Source: Bhargavaea cecembensis
Lineage (GTDB): Bacteria; Bacillota; Bacilli; Bacillales_A; Planococcaceae
DNA: 32,000 nt
Reading direction: 5' to 3'
Assembly (NCBI RefSeq): GCF_001619585.1
Contig: NZ_LQNT01000009.1
Coordinates: forward strand, 1,162,685-1,194,684
Shown here in pieces: positions 3,453 to 19,976 of this stretch; positions within the stretch are counted from its first letter, which is position 1; each line of letters opens with the position of its first letter. The notes below the pieces were generated by a model. It searched no databases. It worked only from the letters and a program-made list of their open reading frames with translations, and was not told where the DNA came from. Made by a program: the position numbers and the translations under genes.

Positions 3453-4505
3453 TTATAAGTCATCGAAGCCGTTCAGGTCACTTGTCTTCGTATACTGCCT
3501 GGAAGTCTGCTCGAAAAAGTCCGTTTTTGTATCATCAAAACTGTCGACATAGGCACGGATCCATTTCATCGGATTGTCCGAGTGTTCCGGATAAATCTCA
3601 GACAGACCGAGCATCCGCAGCATTTTATTCGCCCGGTATTTAATATAGCCTTCCATCTCCACCAGGTCGATGCCGTCCACGCCGTCCAGCACGTAGCGGC
3701 TCCATAGTGTTTCCTGCTCGACCGAATGACGGTATGCGTCGTAAATCCATTCTGTGAACTCCGGCGTGTTCAGCTCCGGGTTCTCCCCCATCGCCGCACG
3801 GAATACATCGCTCATCGCTTTTCCGTGTTCGAGCTCGTCGCGGTTGATGTAGCTGATCATCGTCGACGTTCCGACCATCTTCCCGTTGCGCGCGAGATTA
3901 TAGAAGAACGCGAAGCCGGAATAAAAGAACAGGCCTTCCAGAAGTGTTGTGTACACCATCGCCTTGAGCGCATTTTCAGTGGTCGGATTGGTTGCGAAAT
4001 CATTGTAGACTTCGGCGATCCGCTCGTTTCGCTTCAGAAGGACCGGATCTTGCCGCCCGGTTTCAAAGGATTTAACCTGGTTATCGAACGTCGTGACCGA
4101 GCTTAGGACGTATGCGTAGCTGTGGTTGTGCTCGCTTTCCTGATCGGCGATTGTCGCGAAAAGGGATTTGACGGAAGGGTCCGTCACGTAGTGGGCAAGC
4201 TTTGCCGCAACGTCCGTCTGAGGACCGTCCAGCGTCGCAAGCAGACCGATGATTTTCAGGAACGCATCCCGTTCGGCCTGAGGGAGGTTGGGAAATTGCT
4301 TCACGTCCTGTGTCAGGTCGACCTCGTTGGCGGTCCAGAACAAGGATCGGATCCGCTGGCGGAGCTTATAGAAATGAGGATATTTCAGATCGTTCCAGTT
4401 TAAAATGCCGCTTGCCTCCCCGCCGAAGATAGCAGTCGCCCGGTTCGGATTGACCGGGTCCAGCACCTTTACGCGGGTGAGCAGCTCTGTGGTTTGAGTT
4501 GTCAT
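3453..4505 (-). CDS. nrdF: Ribonucleotide reductase class I beta subunit (R2)
   Basis: 350 aa starting from MTTQTTELL at 4505, with an AAAGGGG SD. The ferritin-like ligand set is present: D in LATLDG, ESEH, E in LLEGLFF, ELEH. The radical Tyr is present in EHNHSY. The 440-aa track ORF is an upstream in-frame extension that would overlap the flavodoxin gene. Confidence 0.9.
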   Translation of the reverse strand: MTTQTTELLTRVKVLDPVNPNRATAIFGGEASGILNWNDLKYPHFYKLRQRIRSLFWTANEVDLTQDVKQFPNLPQAERDAFLKIIGLLATLDGPQTDVAAKLAHYVTDPSVKSLFATIADQESEHNHSYAYVLSSVTTFDNQVKSFETGRQDPVLLKRNERIAEVYNDFATNPTTENALKAMVYTTLLEGLFFYSGFAFFYNLARNGKMVGTSTMISYINRDELEHGKAMSDVFRAAMGENPELNTPEFTEWIYDAYRHSVEQETLWSRYVLDGVDGIDLVEMEGYIKYRANKMLRMLGLSEIYPEHSDNPMKWIRAYVDSFDDTKTDFFEQTSRQYTKTSDLNGFDDL

Positions 4506-4572
4506 GGATAGTGGCCCCTTTCTTATATTAGGGTGATAAAAGATGGTGACAGACCTCAGGTCGAGCGAGCGT

Positions 4573-5025
4573 TCAATAGGGTACCCGGTCATAAGCTTTG
4601 GCACCCAGCCGCTCCGCGACATGATCAGTCCATTCCCGAACGGCCGCTTCCTGCCCGCCACGGGGACTCTGTTCGATCTTGAGCGCAGGCATCGAGGATT
4701 CGTAAAAGCGGGCCAGTTTAACTGCGGCCCTGCAGAAAAGCGCATCGCCCCCGAACTGGGTGTCGCCGGTACCAAAGATGAACGTATTCTCAGGCTTGTA
4801 GCCGACGTCCAAGATGAAATTCTTCACTTCCTCGGGAACGCTTCCCTCTGCCCAGGTGAATGAACCTAATATTAGCGCGTCATATTCAGAAACATCAGGT
4901 ACAGGCTCACCGCCGATCCAGTGGAAGCCGACGGCATGGCCTGCCTCCTCAAGGAAATCTGCGATGAGCTCCGCCGCTTCTTTCGTGTTGCCGCTATAGG
5001 TGGCGTAGGTGATCAGGATGTTCAT
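4573..5025 (-). CDS. Short-chain flavodoxin (YkuN/YkuP-like)
   Basis: 150 aa. The FMN phosphate loop is ITYATYSGNTKE, the 50s loop is GSFTWAEGSVP and the 90s loop is FGTGDTQFGG. A GGAGGGG SD lies 6 nt before the ATG at 5025. It does not carry the NrdI-type motifs. Confidence 0.85.
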   Translation of the reverse strand: MNILITYATYSGNTKEAAELIADFLEEAGHAVGFHWIGGEPVPDVSEYDALILGSFTWAEGSVPEEVKNFILDVGYKPENTFIFGTGDTQFGGDALFCRAAVKLARFYESSMPALKIEQSPRGGQEAAVREWTDHVAERLGAKAYDRVPY

Positions 5026-5121: not shown

Positions 5122-7323
5122 TTATGACTGGCACCATTCACACTCCTCCACGTCGCTTGCGGTCGAGCGTGTGTAGTAGGTCGTCTTCAGGCCTGATTTC
5201 CAAGCTTGAAGATGGAGGTCCAACAGTACACTTGCCCGGATCGTGTTGGGAACGTAGAGATTAAATGAGATCGACTGGTCGATGTGACGCTGGCGGGCGG
5301 CGTTTTGCCGAACGCTCCAGCGCTGGTCGACGATATAGGCGGAACGGCGGTAGACGTCGTAGGTCCGGTGATCGAGGTCTGGCGCCACGACCGGGAGTTT
5401 ATAGTCTTTTTTCTCCTCATGGTAAAACGGTTTAAAGACGGGGTCGATCGATGCGGTGGAGCCCGCAATGACGGATGTCGAGGAGTTCGGGGCGACGGCC
5501 ATCATATAACCGTTTCGGACGCCATTCCGTCCGACTTCCTCCCGGAGCGACTCCCATCGGTCCCCTTTATATCCGCGGCGTTCGAAGTACGTTCCGGTCT
5601 GCCAGTCCGACCCGGAGCAAAGCGGATACGCGCCCTTCTCCCCGGCCAGCTTCGCGGATGCACGGATTGTGTGGTAGGCGATGTCTTCATATAATTTGTC
5701 GGCGAATTCAACAGCCTCCTCCGACTCCCACTGGATGTTGTTCTGTGCGAGCAGGTGGTGCCAGCCAAACGTGCCGAGGCCGATGCCGCGGTAACGCCGG
5801 TTCGTCTCCTGTGCCTGGAGGACAGGGATCTGATTCAGGTCAATGACGTTATCGAGCATGCGGACCTGAATGTCGATCAGCCTTCCGAGCACGCCCGCCG
5901 GCACCGCCTTCCCCAGATTGATCGACGACAGATTGCATACCACAAAGTCGCCCGGCGTGCGCCGGCTGACGATGACGCCGTCTTCCAGCACCTCCTGTGA
6001 CGCGGTCGTTGCGCTCATGTTCTGCGCGATTTCCGAGCACAGATTGGACGAGTAGATGAGGCCCTCATGCTTGTTCGGGTTCATCCGGTTCACCTCGTCC
6101 CGGTAAAACATGAACGGCACGCCCGTCTCGAGCTGGCTGCGCATGATTCGCTTCATGATGTCAATCGCAGGCACCGTTTCGGAATGGATCTCCGGATGCG
6201 CGACGCATTCGGCATACCGCTCGCGGAATGAGCCGGAACCGAACGATTCATCATAAAAGTCCTCGAGTGACCAGCCCATCACGGTGCGCACTTCATGCGG
6301 GTCGAACAGGTGCCAGTCGCCCCGTGCCTCGACCTGTTCCATGAAGAGATCCGGCAGGCAGACACCGGTGAAGATGTCGTGTGCGCGAAGGCGCTCGTCC
6401 CCGTTGTTCAGTTTGAGGTCAAGGAACGTGAGGATGTCCTTGTGCCAGACATCCAGGTAGACGGCTACCGCTCCCTGGCGCTGGCCAAGCTGGTCGACAG
6501 AGACGGCGGTATTGTTCAGCTGCTTAATCCACGGAAGAACACCGCTGGACGCGCCCTTGAAGCCGCGGATTGCGGCACCGCGGGAGCGGACCTTCCCCAT
6601 GTAGACGCCGATGCCGCCGCCGTATTTGGACAGATTTGCGATGTCGGTGTTCGAGTCGTAGATGCCCTGAAGCGAATCATCAACGGTGTCGATAAAGCAG
6701 GACGACAGCTGGCCGTGCGGTTTCCCGGCATTCGCAAGCGTCGGCGTCGCTACGGTCATGTACAGGTTCGAAAGCGCCCAGTACGCTTCCTTGATTTTCA
6801 CAAGGCGGTCTTCTGTTTCATTTCTCATCAGGGTCATGGCAATCACGAGCCAGCGCTCCTGTGGCAGCTCGACCGGCTTTTTATTGAAATCGGTCGCCAC
6901 GTATCGGTCCGTGAGCGTCTTCAGGCCGGTGTATGTAAACAGCAGGTCGCGTGACGGATCGAGGAATGTTCCGATTTCCTGGAGTTCATTCGCAGTGTAG
7001 TGCTCGGTAAGCGCGGTTGTATAGAAGCCGGCTTCGACCTGAGTGCGTACGTGGCGGGCAAAGTCACCATAGACGTCAGCAGTATCGCGGCGCTCCTGTT
7101 GATCGCGGTACAGCTCGCCCAGCAAAATGCGCGCTGCGACATCCGTCCAATATGTTTCCGTCTCATCCACCCGGCCAAGCGCCTCTCGGATGAGGTGCTG
7201 AGGGAGGGACGGCCCGCTGAAGTCTTCGGCAGTGCGGCGGAGCGGGGCGATTTTTTCCGGCGTGAATTCCTGTTCAAGTGCGGAGATGATGGAGAACTGA
7301 TCTGTCGGTTTGGTGGTGACCAT
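5122..7323 (-). CDS. nrdE: Ribonucleotide reductase class I alpha subunit (R1), no ATP-cone
   Basis: 733 aa. RNR large-subunit motifs are present (TPTLANAG, SSCF, GGGIG, QLGQRQGA, SNLCSEI, APNSSTS). The C-terminal redox pair is CEWC (CxxC, as in NrdE). An AAGGAGG SD lies 7 nt before the ATG at 7323. The subclass assignment (Ib versus Ia-like) is uncertain. Confidence 0.9.
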   Translation of the reverse strand: MVTTKPTDQFSIISALEQEFTPEKIAPLRRTAEDFSGPSLPQHLIREALGRVDETETYWTDVAARILLGELYRDQQERRDTADVYGDFARHVRTQVEAGFYTTALTEHYTANELQEIGTFLDPSRDLLFTYTGLKTLTDRYVATDFNKKPVELPQERWLVIAMTLMRNETEDRLVKIKEAYWALSNLYMTVATPTLANAGKPHGQLSSCFIDTVDDSLQGIYDSNTDIANLSKYGGGIGVYMGKVRSRGAAIRGFKGASSGVLPWIKQLNNTAVSVDQLGQRQGAVAVYLDVWHKDILTFLDLKLNNGDERLRAHDIFTGVCLPDLFMEQVEARGDWHLFDPHEVRTVMGWSLEDFYDESFGSGSFRERYAECVAHPEIHSETVPAIDIMKRIMRSQLETGVPFMFYRDEVNRMNPNKHEGLIYSSNLCSEIAQNMSATTASQEVLEDGVIVSRRTPGDFVVCNLSSINLGKAVPAGVLGRLIDIQVRMLDNVIDLNQIPVLQAQETNRRYRGIGLGTFGWHHLLAQNNIQWESEEAVEFADKLYEDIAYHTIRASAKLAGEKGAYPLCSGSDWQTGTYFERRGYKGDRWESLREEVGRNGVRNGYMMAVAPNSSTSVIAGSTASIDPVFKPFYHEEKKDYKLPVVAPDLDHRTYDVYRRSAYIVDQRWSVRQNAARQRHIDQSISFNLYVPNTIRASVLLDLHLQAWKSGLKTTYYTRSTASDVEECEWCQS

Positions 7324-7346
7324 GGATATTCCTCCTTAATAGTTGT

Positions 7347-7650
7347 CGCGATGCGATATGTTGAGTTGCGGACGCGAACTTGTGACTTGCCGTCGCGGAA
7401 TGCTGTGCTGCAGGCGTGAATTTGCGAACTGCCGGCGCGAAAGCCGGTGCTGCGGACGCGAATTTGTGGGTTGCCGGCGCGAAATGCTGAGGTGCGGACG
7501 CAAAATCCAGTGCTGCGGGCGTGAATTTGTGACTTGCCGACGCGAAAGCCGGGGATGCGGACGCGAATTTGCGAACTGCCGGCGCGAAATAAGGACCTGC
7601 GGGCGCGAATCCGCCCCGTGCCACGCGAAAGCTGCCTTCAGACGCGCAAA
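7347..7650. repeat. Array of about 14 direct repeats with strict 21-bp phase in the nrdE 5' leader
   Basis: Plus-strand units beginning CGYGAA start at 7373, 7394, 7415, 7436, 7457, 7478, 7499, 7520, 7541, 7562, 7583 and 7604. Degenerate units start at 7347, 7624 and 7643. The conserved ends are CGYGAA and TGCSG, with variable 8-9 nt centres. Confidence 0.9.
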
Positions 7651-7684
7651 AGCCCCGCCCGAAGAAGATTCTTCGGCGGGGCTT
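7645..7684 (-). terminator. Intrinsic terminator forming the expression platform of the cobalamin riboswitch
   Basis: Minus strand reads GCCCCGCCGAAGAA-tc-TTCTTCGGGCGGGGC followed by TTTTGCG. The stem is GC-rich, about 14 bp, with one bulged C. Confidence 0.8.
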
Positions 7685-7799
7685 CCGCTGTTCGCGTGTG
7701 GGTAATGGAGGATCGGGGCCGGGGATAAATGAAGAGATGAATCAAAGATATGAATGGCCGGCGCCCGTTCGCTTCCACCTCTCAACCCCCGAAGAAAGT

Positions 7800-7958
7800 G
7801 TCGCTTGCGATGGGCGGCAGGTCTACTGGCTCGCGCTTCTTCCTCCCGCCGTCCTTCCCGCAGCAGGCTGCAGTGGATTCTTCGGCGGTCGTCGGCGCTC
7901 ACAGTTGCGGGGACAGCTCCGGCTTTTTCCGGATTCCCTATTAAACCGCGATCGGTAC
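7800..7958 (-). promoter_or_regulatory. Cobalamin (B12) riboswitch aptamer
   Basis: Minus strand reads GGTTTAATAGGGAATCCGGAAAAAGCCGGAGCTGTCCCCGCAACTGTGAGCG...GAATCCACTGCAGCC..GCGGGAAGGACGG...GAGCCAGTAGACCTGCCGCC. This matches the conserved core of cobalamin riboswitches: AATAGGGAA, GCxGxCCCGCAACTGT, the B12 box CCACTG, GGGAAG and AGACCTGCC. Compare the E. coli btuB leader. Confidence 0.85.
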
Positions 7959-7971
7959 CAACCCATCGTTA

Positions 7972-8019
7972 ATACTATATATAGTGTTGTTAACGCTCAT
8001 ATAGCCTAACATATTGTGT
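7972..8019. promoter_or_regulatory. Two tandem NrdR boxes
   Basis: Box 1 (7972-7987) is ATACTATATATAGTGT, a near-perfect match to the palindromic NrdR-box consensus acaCwAtATaTwGtgt. Box 2 (8004-8019) is GCCTAACATATTGTGT, with a good right half. The centres are 32 bp apart, which is the usual NrdR tandem spacing. Confidence 0.65.
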
Positions 8020-8024: not shown

Positions 8025-8189
8025 ACCTAAATAGGACGAAAGGCTATGAAAATTCGCGAAACGCGTCAACCACACACGGCTTCTACTATAACAGACATAT
8101 AGCGCTCCGCAAGACTGTCCGTTTATTCCACAAGCTTCAGCATCCAAGATCATTAAATTGAAACAGATGGACCCGTTTCAATTCTTTTT

Positions 8190-13378: not shown

Positions 13379-13693
13379 CTATTCCACCAGCTTTAAACCG
13401 ACCGCTGCACCGAGAATGATGAGGATGCACAGCACCCTGCGCCAGTCTCTCGATTCCCCGTAGAAGAACATGCCGGCGAGTGCGCCGCCGGATGCGCCGA
13501 TGCCGGTCCAGATGGCGTAGGCGGTGGACATCGGGATGAATTCCATGGCATAGGCAAGCAGGATGAAACTTGAACCGAATGTGCCCAGCAGCAGAAGGAG
13601 CGATTGGGCGTTCCGTTCCTTGTTCAGCCGGCTGATGCTCATGACACCGGCCGTTTCAAACAAGCCGGCGGCAATCAGTGAGAGCCATGCCAT
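13379..13693 (-). CDS. ykkD: SMR-family guanidinium exporter subunit (YkkD-like)
   Basis: 104 aa with four TM segments and the conserved membrane Glu (LFETAGV). A GAAGGAGGGG SD is present. The start overlaps the upstream SMR gene by 19 nt. Confidence 0.85.
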
Positions 13694-14019
13694 TCTTCAT
13701 CCCCTCCTTCATCCGTCACAAGCTTCAGACCGATGACGCCCGCAAGCAGGACAGCGATCAACGCGAGTTTGGCAGGGTTCACCTGTGCGCCGAACAGAAT
13801 GATTTCAGCGATGACCGTACCTGCCGCACCGAGCCCGACGAACACCGCGTAGGCGGTCCCGACCGGAAGCGTTCGACCGGCGACAATAAGCAGGTAGAAG
13901 CTTACATAGATGGCTGCAGCGGTGCCCAGCCATTCGAGTACGCCATCCGCGTGCTTGAGCCCGATCACCCAGCCGACTTCAAAGATGGCTGCGACAATAA
14001 TTTTCCACCAGTCTTTCAT
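13675..14019 (-). CDS. ykkC: SMR-family guanidinium exporter subunit (YkkC-like)
   Basis: 114 aa starting from [18 protein letters not shown] at 14019, with a GAGGAGG SD 7 nt upstream. The track ORF starts 10 codons earlier, inside the riboswitch terminator tail. Confidence 0.85.
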
Positions 14020-14068
14020 GCGGTTGTCCTCCTCTTGTCGTTTCCTCATCCTGCCTGATCAGCTGCTG

Positions 14069-18763: not shown

Positions 18764-19384
18764 ATGGCGAAACGGATCACCATTTATCTGGCGGGGCTGT
18801 TCGTCGCGGCATTCGGCATCGCCCTCGTGATCATGTCCGCCGTCGGAGCGGGACCTTGGGATGCGGTTGCGGTCGGACTGAACCTGCACTTTGGGCTGAC
18901 GGTCGGCCTCTGGTCAATCCTTTCCCTGCTTCTCTTCACCCTCCTCACCTTTCTGATTGAGAAAACACGGTTCCGTCTTGAGTCGATGGTGCCCATCATC
19001 ATCCGTGGTGCCTTCCTCGACTTCTGGCTTTATGGCGTGCTCCGGGGGGCGGACTTCGCTTCGTCTCCCGCCCTCCAGTGGACAAGCTTCGCCGCCGGTC
19101 TTCTCCTGATCGGTGCGGGACTCGGCGCCTACATGGAAGCGGGCTTCCCGAAAACACCGGTCGACGGCCTGATGGTGGCCGTCAGCGGCCGCACCGGCTG
19201 GAGCTTCAGTTCGGCCAGAATGCTGATTGAGGGGACCGGAGCGGCGACCGCCTTCCTCCTCGGCGGGCCGGTGGCGCTTGGGACTCTGCTCACCGCCCTT
19301 TTCCTCGGAAAAATCATCCAGACTGTCAACGCGAAAACGAAAACCATACTACAGGCACAGCGACTGCACGAGCAGCGCACCTAA
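18764..19384 (+). CDS. yczE: YczE-like integral membrane protein
   Basis: 206 aa starting from MAKRITIYLAGLFVAAFGIALVIMSAVGAGPWDAVAVGL, with a GGAAGGGG SD 8 nt upstream. It resembles B. subtilis YczE (..GL.I.AFG..L.I.A.LG..PWDV...GL). The track ORF starts 30 codons earlier without an SD. Confidence 0.75.
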   Translation: MAKRITIYLAGLFVAAFGIALVIMSAVGAGPWDAVAVGLNLHFGLTVGLWSILSLLLFTLLTFLIEKTRFRLESMVPIIIRGAFLDFWLYGVLRGADFASSPALQWTSFAAGLLLIGAGLGAYMEAGFPKTPVDGLMVAVSGRTGWSFSSARMLIEGTGAATAFLLGGPVALGTLLTALFLGKIIQTVNAKTKTILQAQRLHEQRT

Positions 19385-19400
19385 AAGGAGAGAGTCAAAC

Positions 19401-19799
19401 ATGACCAACATTACCCCGTTCCTCATGTTCCAGGACAAAAACGCGGAAGAAGCAATGAACTTCTACACATCGCTCTTCAAAAACTCCGAGATCACCAACA
19501 TCGTCCGCTACGGCCCGGATGTTCCGGGCGGGGATGAAGGCACTGTCATGCTTGCGACGTTTACGCTGAATGGCCGGGAGTTCAAATGCATTGACAGCAG
19601 CATCCGCCACCAGTTCGACTTCACCCCGTCGTTCTCGATCTACGTGGACGTCGACACCGAAGAGGAAATCGACCACTTGTACAGCAAGCTCGCAGAGGGC
19701 GGCATGGAACTCATGGCGCTAGGCAACCACGGATTCAGCCGGAAATTCGGTTGGGTGAACGACAAGTACGGTGTGTCCTGGCAGATCAATTTGCCTTGA
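19401..19799 (+). CDS. VOC-superfamily protein, PhnB/YjdN-like (3-demethylubiquinone-9 3-methyltransferase-domain family)
   Basis: 132 aa, starting MTNITPFLMFQDKNAEEAMNFYTSLF and ending KYGVSWQINLP, both typical of the PhnB-like family. An AAAGGAGAGAG SD is present. The track ORF (from 19227) is an upstream extension that overlaps yczE. Confidence 0.8.
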   Translation: MTNITPFLMFQDKNAEEAMNFYTSLFKNSEITNIVRYGPDVPGGDEGTVMLATFTLNGREFKCIDSSIRHQFDFTPSFSIYVDVDTEEEIDHLYSKLAEGGMELMALGNHGFSRKFGWVNDKYGVSWQINLP

Positions 19800-19814: not shown

Positions 19815-19900
19815 CTGGATCGTCACTTTCAAAGCTGGATTCGTCACTTTCAGGGACCGATTCGTCACTTTCAGAGCCCCTTTCGTCACTTTCGCATCAA
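19815..19900. repeat. Four tandem 21-bp units downstream of the PhnB-like gene
   Basis: CGTCACTTTC starts at 19821, 19842, 19863 and 19884, an exact 21-bp spacing. The unit is about GATTCGTCACTTTCAGnGnCC. Confidence 0.85.
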
Positions 19901-19944
19901 AACAGGCCGCCTGAAAAGAACCACAATCCGCTTTTCTCCCATAC

Positions 19945-19976
19945 AAAAAAGGGACGCCATTGCGCGTCCCTTTTTT
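19945..19976. terminator. Bidirectional intrinsic terminator between the PhnB-like gene and yeeD
   Basis: AAAAAAGGGACGC-cattg-GCGTCCCTTTTTT. Confidence 0.85.

Follow-up and report, generated by a model that had tools for sequence, protein, structure and literature searches.

Introduction

Repeat families that persist in bacteria are rare, and the enzyme behind them is known for only a few, REP sequences and their RAYT proteins being the chief example. REP/REPIN elements and RAYTs (Nunvar 2010; Bertels and Rainey 2011, PMC3116915) are conceptually the closest described system to the subject of this study, an array of phased 21-bp direct repeats in the leader of nrdE in Bhargavaea cecembensis. 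The array lies in a 32,000-nucleotide stretch of contig NZ_LQNT01000009.1 (positions 1,162,685 to 1,194,684 of the forward strand; NCBI RefSeq assembly GCF_001619585.1), which we call the window, and it belongs to a repeat family that we call F1. As with REPs and RAYTs, short repeats are scattered over intergenic DNA, a DNA-cutting enzyme (in our case a predicted one) is encoded by a vertically inherited gene that its own repeats flank, the repeat sequence is specific to each enzyme clade, and repeats persist at syntenic sites over species-level divergence. F1 also resembles REPs in having many intergenic copies dispersed in one lineage, about ten loci in five genomes. REPs, however, are palindromes of 20-40 nt that carry a GTAG/CGTC tag and occur singly or as inverted pairs, whereas the cores described here are non-palindromic, 12 nt long and arranged in tandem, exactly one every 21 bp, with variable spacers between them; the nrdE-leader array consists of direct repeats, and no inverted repeats were found inside it. 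Likewise, RAYTs are IS200-like Y1 transposases, whereas the protein considered here is a NERD protein of the PD-(D/E)xK type with a zinc ribbon and a winged helix, and its mobility is only hypothetical. A Y1 transposase of the IS200/IS605 type flanked by the repeats is not part of the present system.

The non-CRISPR arrays of Altae-Tran 2023 (PMC10910872) are similar in having regular repeats, hypervariable spacers of constant length and no cas genes. They are linked to predicted nucleic-acid-interacting proteins, two of which are PD-(D/E)xK nucleases, and the arrays described here share this combination of hypervariable-spacer repeats and such a protein; function is unknown there too. The six systems of that study (DUF3800, AddB-like PDDEXK + metallophosphatase, PDDEXK_ATPase, PLMP_corA-like, DUF222_HNH and GGDEF+MFS; PMC10910872) do not include the Bhargavaea NERD protein, and its NERD entry, UAS-71, is a 264-amino-acid protein of another architecture. 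The arrays described here differ further in that they occur at many loci per genome, and their unit of only 20-21 bp (12+9) is too short for CRISPR-like guides. CRISPR repeats are about 23-55 nt long with spacers of similar or greater length, against a 12-nt core and a 9-nt spacer in F1, and there are no cas genes among the annotated neighbors of the array in the window.

Plasmid iterons, direct repeats of 17-22 bp, follow one another at intervals of about two helical turns as the F1 units do, and combine a conserved core with a less conserved remainder. They too lie beside the gene of a winged-helix protein, the one that binds them, and have inverted copies near its promoter. In contrast to iterons, the arrays described here have no Rep-family protein or adjacent Rep gene, no DnaA boxes and no AT-rich unwinding element, and they occupy dozens of chromosomal loci rather than one origin. 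Mycobacterial interspersed repetitive units (MIRU-VNTR) and pneumococcal BOX elements resemble them as genus-specific tandem units, intergenic or intercistronic, whose copy number differs by lineage. Their units, however, are 40-100 bp long and diverge evenly along their length, MIRUs have a fixed orientation with overlapping open reading frames (ORFs), and no cognate nuclease gene is known for either element. The ends of Tn7 and phage Mu, bound by TnsB and MuA, carry several 20-22-bp sites that are direct within an end, inverted between ends and flank the gene of the binding protein, but such ends have only 3-4 sites each, and they come with a DDE transposase, defined termini and target-site duplications, none of which were seen here. 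We also considered and rejected the sites of LytTR regulators, 9-bp direct repeats 12 bp apart with the consensus [TA][AC][CA]GTTN[AG][TG]. By inspection the F1 core is off this consensus, there is no LytTR gene among the annotated genes of the window, and the two have only the 21-bp period in common.

F1 does have the 20-21-bp period, conserved core and variable spacer of the arrays that we find beside NERD genes. We propose, at a probability that we put at roughly 60%, that the nrdE-leader array is a gene-less ('orphan') member of F1 and that its cores are candidate DNA binding sites of NERD-family nucleases. We found neither the array superfamily nor its link to a nuclease in the literature searched; interspersed repeats with a cognate nuclease and non-CRISPR hypervariable arrays are known kinds of system.

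Results

The repeat array in the nrdE leader

The F1 unit reads TTCGCG-N-C-S-GCA on the minus strand, followed by 9 variable nucleotides. A strict array of twelve 21-bp units, delimited by pattern matches and by Tandem Repeats Finder, occupies positions 7358..7609 of the minus strand. A search for TTCGCGYCSGCA with at most 2 mismatches returned 12 minus-strand matches from 7367 to 7598 (span 7367-7609), always exactly 21 bp apart. These agree with an earlier reading of the DNA by a model that saw only the sequence (hereafter the sequence-only reading), which had listed twelve consecutive CGYGAA starts on the plus strand from 7373 to 7604. A whole shuffled 32-kb window yields about 15 matches to TTCGCGYCSGCA, scattered, so that 12 strictly phased matches in 252 bp rule out a chance origin. 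Over 7353-7610, Tandem Repeats Finder reported periods of 21, 42, 63 and 105.

In sense-strand order the locus consists of a cobalamin riboswitch, an intrinsic terminator, the array, a ribosome-binding site (RBS), nrdE, nrdI and nrdF, confirming the placement of the array between the B12-riboswitch terminator and the nrdE RBS. All of the leader features lie on the minus strand. The riboswitch aptamer (RF00174) spans 7800..7977 (109.9 bits, E=6e-27), and a terminator hairpin with a U tract, read from the sequence as the expression platform of the riboswitch, spans 7647..7686 (inverted repeats I5 and I8). The RBS, AAGGAGG, was likewise read at 7331..7337, upstream of the ATG at 7323 of nrdE (5122..7323), which encodes the class Ib ribonucleotide reductase alpha subunit. 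The array is outside the riboswitch/terminator unit, given that the RF00174 match goes no further than 7800 and that the terminator stops at about 7647. In the leader 3' of the riboswitch terminator we found no promoter-like site.

Degenerate units flank the strict array on both sides, although one of the three that had been named is not a repeat. A degenerate 20-nt unit (TTCGCGTGGCACGGGGCGGA, 7610..7629) forms the 5' edge, and a degenerate terminal unit (ATCGCATCGCGACAACTATTA, 7337..7357), homologous to its counterpart in B. changchunensis and B. ginsengi, merges into the RBS. The stretch at 7630..7650 is instead the conserved tail that follows the terminator (TTTGCGCGTCTG...), as judged from a comparison of Bhargavaea leaders, and holds no repeat unit. 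Two unit types can be told apart at core position 9, in the order B A B A B B A B A B A B. The alternation described earlier is therefore mostly right, and its one break is due to duplication of a 5-unit (105-bp) block; two units within the array are identical. Three ORFs stay open through the array, as had been stated, but the single related copy claimed at 8049-8070 did not hold up: it has only the CGCGAA hexamer in common with F1, deviates at 4 of the 10 core positions that the pattern specifies, and has no conserved counterpart in B. ginsengi.

The sense RNA of the array is less folded than 100 of 100 shuffles (z=+2.4), and the antisense RNA is unremarkable. Beyond the riboswitch, no Rfam family was found here or, even at a relaxed threshold, in five related loci, and a structured RNA was rejected on these grounds. 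One array spacer (7440-7452, 13 nt) is 92% complementary to positions 7914-7926 of the riboswitch aptamer (pair I3), and a second spacer-aptamer pair (I4) reaches 85%; both are probably chance.

F1 arrays throughout Bhargavaea

A pattern scan of one genome per species, covering 185,579 species with two cores 21 bp apart as the query, returned 76 loci. Eighteen of these, all of them intergenic and phased with about 3-12 units, are in five Bhargavaea genomes, and other genera have at most two loci each. Arrays with the core TTCGCGNCSGCA occupy about ten independent, unrelated intergenic sites in the five genomes. These comprise the nrd leader, spaces where convergent genes meet, stretches that separate a terminator from the promoter or gene after it, one intercistronic gap and one 3' untranslated region (UTR). 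Relative to the flanking genes, TTCGCG is on the sense strand at four sites and on the antisense strand at three, and at two others the array lies between convergent genes, indicating that a strand-specific role at the RNA level is unlikely. Thus the core is not confined to nrd, although it is multi-locus only in Bhargavaea, and the framing of the array as a feature of the nrdE leader, adopted in the sequence-only reading, is not supported. Together with the orthologous leaders described below, the scan excludes an nrd-specific element. That reading had not recognized the element, and neither do we: no Rfam family covers it, no paper describing the arrays was found, and the literature searched gave no description of Bhargavaea repeats.

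Spacers differ between F1 copies at different loci. Units of 17, 18, 19, 20 and 29 nt occur, and three further orthologous sets have 3/7/5, 5/7/10 and 7/9/5 units. Polar, CRISPR-like growth of the arrays was not supported, as 3'-end units are common between species in two sets while unit order is scrambled in the third. In one orthologous set, a G-rich head and a C-rich tail look by eye like terminal inverted repeats of F1.

Outside Bhargavaea, the scan found 21 arrays of at least 3 units in other phyla (Acidobacteriota, Planctomycetota, Myxococcota and others). Their units are conserved over their whole length, marking them as ordinary tandem repeats and not the same element, and they served as controls. 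Some of these control repeats are probably coding. Four loci in metagenome-assembled genomes of unrelated soil bacteria from the Acidobacteriota, Planctomycetota and Myxococcota (L019, L012, L043 and L040) are 21-bp tandem repeats that start with TTCGCGYCTGCA and have short open frames.

Conservation of cores and divergence of spacers

Over 88 units, the information content amounts to 1.4-2.0 bits at core positions 1-6, 8 and 10-12, values that are inflated because units were chosen by core match, and to 0.06-0.64 bits at positions 13-21. The 21 arrays of other phyla, found by the same scan, control for this bias. Within-array core identity is 0.91 in 19 Bhargavaea arrays and 0.91 in the 21 control arrays, while within-array spacer identity is 0.37 in Bhargavaea (n=19) versus 0.79 in the controls (n=21; Mann-Whitney p=7e-8). 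The even divergence along the unit that is typical of VNTR/MIRU-type repeats is thus absent, although copy number does differ between species, as in a minisatellite. The same split is seen between species in two other 21-bp families of Bhargavaea. Orthologous F4 arrays keep about 54 of 56 core positions versus roughly two thirds of spacer positions, and in orthologous F3 arrays the cores are nearly intact and the spacers unrelated; by comparison, identity at the fourfold-degenerate sites of nrdE reaches only 58-76% in the same species. This suggests that the cores are held by selection or by a core-specific homogenizing process while the spacers drift, and it supports the earlier view that the array reflects constraint rather than recent slippage.

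Orthologous nrd leaders

The riboswitch, the post-terminator tail TTTGCGCGTCTG... and the start ATGGTCACCACC are common to five Bhargavaea species, the tail regardless of which repeat family follows it; tail and start differ in B. ullalensis. The number of F1 units between these landmarks is about 2 in B. ginsengi, about 6 in B. changchunensis and about 14 in the window. The RBS-proximal units are homologous across these three species, and the extra units of the window come from internal block duplication. The leaders of B. massiliensis and B. beijingensis (three sources of the latter are alike) have no F1 and carry a family of GAGTGCTTCGAA + 9 nt, with direct and then inverted units. In B. 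massiliensis (L080 1761-1960), four direct GAGTGCTTCGAA units, a central spacer and four inverted units would form a long interrupted hairpin in RNA or single-stranded DNA, between the riboswitch terminator and the nrdE RBS. B. ullalensis has a third 21-bp family, GCGWCTCACTCGC, which recurs in inverted orientation between nrdI and nrdF (L082 12697-12806), so that the nrdE-nrdI pair is bracketed by inverted arrays. Sporosarcina and Edaphobacillus have the same riboswitch and short leaders, in which the array is absent (Sporosarcina) or at most vestigial (Edaphobacillus). Some 21-bp array is therefore present in the nrd leader of every Bhargavaea species examined, but neither its unit number nor its core family is constant, and this argues against a fixed role in nrd control.

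Further families of 21-bp arrays

The phased 21-bp arrays of Bhargavaea fall into at least nine core families. F2-F9 and U1-U3 repeat the period and the constant-plus-variable build of F1, in which 11-14 nt form a conserved core and 7-10 nt a variable spacer. The F3 core is GGTTTCGTCATTC, in direct and then inverted units, and the F4 core is GAGTTTGAAGATTA; F6, F7 and F9 are also found at the Bhargavaea loci. Families F2 and F3 include direct-then-inverted arrays that have no gene between them, and the U1/U2 arrays of B. ullalensis are up to about 770 bp long. F5 is present in the window itself, where four TCGTCACTTTCA units with a variable spacer occupy 19820..19903 on the plus strand; on one side of it is the stop codon of a gene of the glyoxalase/3-demethylubiquinone-methyltransferase family (19227-19799), and on the other a bidirectional terminator (about 19946-19975). 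A phased-array detector found 45 arrays in 230 kb of Bhargavaea DNA, much of it selected for arrays, versus 1 in 44 kb of Edaphobacillus and Sporosarcina DNA. Spacing in the sampled Bhargavaea DNA is one array per roughly 5-17 kb, and arrays reach 14-38 units.

Arrays flank NERD genes

A NERD-domain gene (PF08378) of B. ullalensis lies between two U1/U2 arrays in inverted orientation (L082), and the syntenic site in Edaphobacillus has neither the gene nor the arrays. Homologues of this gene in a word-indexed search were essentially all from Bhargavaea. All four intact Bhargavaea NERD genes examined (L082, L085, L086 and L087) lie between inverted arrays with clade-specific cores. In L085, GAGTGTTATCG arrays are upstream of the gene and their reverse complement is downstream, the flanks in L086 are F3 arrays, and those in L087 are F2-type arrays, so that flanking of a NERD gene is seen for F2, F3, U1/U2 and the GAGTGTTATCG family. 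Read in gene orientation, upstream cores have the sequence GA(G/A)TG... and downstream cores are their reverse complement. The promoter region of about 160 nt upstream of the gene is conserved across clades.

For F1 itself, a truncated NERD gene in B. massiliensis (L064 6054-6380), about 108 codons long and interrupted by one stop, ends about 30 bp before an F1 array. The only twin found for this relic is a 97% identical, likewise truncated metagenomic ORF of 108 amino acids that lacks the internal stop, and the truncated form thus seems to persist. From the L064 relic only, we infer that F1 may have, or may once have had, a cognate NERD paralogue. The genome to which the window belongs encodes two NERD paralogues, P0125 and P0135 (AV656_08460).

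We then compared 44 metagenomic loci that encode full-length relatives of the Bhargavaea protein with 22 control loci that encode NERD-domain-only proteins. A phased 20-21-bp array lies within 500 bp of the gene at 31 of the 44 full-length loci versus 1 of the 22 controls (Fisher p=1.9e-7). At the metagenomic loci, arrays occur at a density of 1.26 per kb close to the gene and 0.18 per kb at greater distance, and none lies inside a gene. The metagenomic arrays have the same core-plus-spacer build, with cores such as GCTCATAGAA, GTGGACATAGAAC, AACCGCGGATAA (at least 28 and 27 units) and TTTCGCGGAAT. Similarly, four core-plus-spacer repeats lie just upstream of the RBS of a homologue on a B. thuringiensis plasmid. 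In these 20-bp repeats (L089 1894-1970; plasmid NZ_CP151868), TTGATA is about 18 bp from the TGATATATT of the next unit, a spacing at which adjacent units would form consecutive sigma-A-like promoters. Nothing on NERD proteins with repeat arrays was found in the literature searched.

The NERD/zinc-ribbon/winged-helix protein

Proteins of this family are about 325 amino acids long. Their invariant residues include D79...E92-x-K94, a PD-(D/E)xK nuclease signature, and two CxxC pairs. An AlphaFold model (pLDDT 90, pTM 0.84) predicts a PD-(D/E)xK-like N-terminal domain and a winged-helix C-terminal domain. The leading Foldseek matches are all PD-(D/E)xK nucleases (R2 retrotransposon endonuclease, Can2, Bax1, Hjc, McrC and RecU), and the C-terminal part matches a winged-helix protein. 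The array-flanked genes match only the NERD family in Pfam; PADLOC gave no match, NCBIfam gave sub-threshold matches only, and no sequence relative with a solved structure was found. According to surveys, NERD has no known function (PMC3424549). When 1.84 billion representative proteins were searched with a profile, 275 full-length relatives were returned at E <= 1e-30, the named ones being from Bhargavaea, Sporosarcina and Halobacillus, and a scan of JGI metagenomes and viral contigs with the Bhargavaea NERD alignment found nothing.

Other features of the window

The annotated neighbors in the window are nrdEIF, GntR and LacI regulators, dehydrogenases and transporters. NrdE of the window is 100% identical to an NCBI B. 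cecembensis protein, 93% identical to that of other Bhargavaea species, 84-85% identical to those of B. ullalensis and Edaphobacillus and 76% identical to that of Sporosarcina. By annotation and synteny, the flavodoxin-like gene nrdI is at 4573..5025 and the ORF that contains nrdF, for the reductase small subunit, is at 3453..4775, both on the minus strand. The true start of nrdF is probably internal to this ORF, which would give a product of about 350 amino acids like the orthologues.

Two 16-mers near the riboswitch, candidate NrdR boxes, match the NrdR-box consensus at 12 of 16 (ACACAATATGTTAGGC, 8019-8004, minus strand) and 15 of 16 positions (ACACTATATATAGTAT, 7987-7972, minus strand). 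A distance of 32 bp separates their centers, and the pair lies immediately upstream of the riboswitch and runs into its start; two such sites beside the riboswitch would place the nrd operon under both NrdR and B12 control. Further along the window, a guanidine-I riboswitch (RF00442; 14108-14211, minus strand; 89.5 bits) precedes two overlapping small multidrug resistance (SMR) genes (13379-14049), which is the usual arrangement of guanidinium exporters. This SMR pair is found immediately upstream of the nrd operon in both B. ginsengi and B. beijingensis, indicating that the region has been rearranged between species. Downstream of nrdF, a gene of about 230-240 amino acids with transposase-type domains (HTH_Tnp_1, HTH_23 and HTH_28) is syntenic in Bhargavaea and Edaphobacillus (L077 5954-, L081 5948-, L082 13999-14727, L083 15080-15778 and L085 5633-6361). 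Such synteny would be unusual for the gene of a mobile element. This gene is absent in the window and in B. massiliensis, where a LacI-family gene takes its place.

Discussion

We favor the reading in which the nrdE-leader array is an orphan F1 array whose cores are bound by NERD-family nucleases. Under this reading, each core would be occupied by one protein molecule or dimer, and the 21-bp period, being two helical turns, would set the cores on one face of the DNA and allow cooperative head-to-tail occupancy. Cores could be kept intact through selection on binding, or through repair that is triggered by the nuclease and copies cores, while spacers drift; arrays might persist because they benefit the host or because the nuclease itself sustains them. 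In the nrd leader, the array would then be a passenger in free DNA behind the riboswitch terminator, uninformative on ribonucleotide reductase. The array is not a regulatory device of nrdE. An occupied array could nonetheless affect nrdE, at most by impeding RNA polymerase. Among the three options that the sequence-only reading had offered, a DNA-level protein array thus fits best, a landing pad for an RNA-binding protein is unlikely given the mixed orientation of F1, and the third, a structured minisatellite, is weighed below.

Several observations count against this proposal. Binding of the cores by the protein is proposed from adjacency and domain content only. The Foldseek matches to solved nucleases in the PDB are weak (E >= 1.7e-3), and one NERD protein is reported to act as an RNA endonuclease (bioRxiv 10.64898/2026.04.06.716636). 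We found neither an intact NERD gene with F1 flanks nor a close relative of the L064 relic that is intact, and there is no NERD gene in the 32-kb window. In the wider family, arrays are usually one-sided and the two-sided ones can be direct (L111 and L140), so that the inverted-end architecture is not general. Finally, at least nine core families face only the four or five NERD clades observed to date, leaving a one-clade-one-core mapping unproven.

A selfish, non-autonomous mobile element would account for part of the same evidence, and we regard it as a sub-variant of the favored explanation, though an unlikely one. Here the arrays would be the multi-site ends of a NERD element that brings no benefit to the host, and the gene-less arrays its miniature derivatives, copied or moved in trans by the nuclease. 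NERD genes do lie between inverted arrays much as transposase genes lie between terminal binding sites, F2 and F3 form direct-then-inverted arrays with no gene between, gene and arrays are together absent at the Edaphobacillus syntenic site, and the L064 gene is cut off where the F1 array starts. Yet arrays and NERD genes are syntenic between species, giving no sign of recent movement, spacers differ between loci, and no target-site duplications were seen. Moreover, PD-(D/E)xK nucleases by themselves are not known to perform strand transfer. Still less probable is a neutral minisatellite without any binding partner, produced by slippage or unequal recombination in free DNA, with the core reflecting recent amplification or concerted evolution. 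The 42-, 63- and 105-bp periods and the two identical units of the window's array do record a recent block duplication, unit number differs between species at every orthologous site, and array placement has no consistent relation to transcription units. Such a process, however, does not account for spacers that are near random (0.37) beside cores at 0.91, when ordinary 21-bp repeats stand at 0.79 and 0.91, nor for cores that stay intact between species with only about 60% fourfold-degenerate identity, nor for the recurrence of one build in at least nine families and beside NERD genes.

Readings in which the array acts as RNA or protein fare worse. An element in the nrdE 5' UTR that tunes nrdE, either as a pad for an RNA-binding protein or as an unstructured C-rich site for Rho loading and termination, would be transcribed on read-through of the riboswitch terminator, no promoter-like site having been found downstream of it, and it would fit both the poorly folded sense RNA and the presence of some 21-bp array here in every Bhargavaea species examined. 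We nevertheless hold it to be very improbable, since F1 is antisense at three sites and also lies outside transcripts (between terminators and upstream of promoters), its leader unit count ranges from 2 to 14, the direct and inverted units of B. massiliensis would give a long hairpin, the opposite of an unstructured leader, and there is no Rfam match. The least credible reading of all is a translated heptad repeat, F-A-(S/P)-A-x-x-x, made from the ORF at 7624-7274 as a leader peptide or as a MIRU-like ORF coupled to nrdE. It draws on the fact that 21 nt is 7 codons, on the overlap of this ORF with the nrdE start, and on the TTC GCG frame, which over all arrays has 1 stop in 674 codons versus 12-14 stops in the other frames. 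By a hand calculation, however, position-specific base composition would on its own leave only about 3 stops in this frame, and the depletion can be explained without selection for coding. In the GCG and GCA codons the wobble position never changes, whereas the first position of codon 3 varies freely, and units of 17-20 and 29 nt break the frame. There are arrays between convergent terminators, that of L013 (checked by hand) has no upstream start codon in frame, and direct-plus-inverted arrays cannot code on one strand. We rejected a coding repeat or leader peptide on the composition-explained stops, the invariant wobble positions and the frame-breaking units.

Beyond the nrdE leader, the arrays and the NERD proteins may together form a repeat-nuclease partnership that has not been described. 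In this partnership, which we advance tentatively, Bacillales NERD/zinc-ribbon/winged-helix proteins would recognize a clade-specific core of about 12 bp and maintain, and possibly spread, phased 21-bp arrays. With the odds again somewhat below even, the arrays, placed around the protein's own gene and in Bhargavaea throughout intergenic DNA, would make up a distinct system in its own right. Ordinary tandem repeats do not have this build of a constant 12 bp and a variable 9 bp repeated every two helical turns, and the same build stands beside an uncharacterized nuclease family across Bacillales. If the protein does bind the cores, NERD would gain a concrete substrate and repeats and host nucleases a testable case of co-evolution, one that would be a second counterpart to REPIN-RAYT and mechanistically unrelated to it. 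Arrays of this kind should not be taken for locus-specific regulators in annotation. If occupied, they may act as roadblocks or insulators at many operons, the essential nrdEF operon included, and leaders, 3' UTRs and intercistronic gaps would possibly come under a new level of control.

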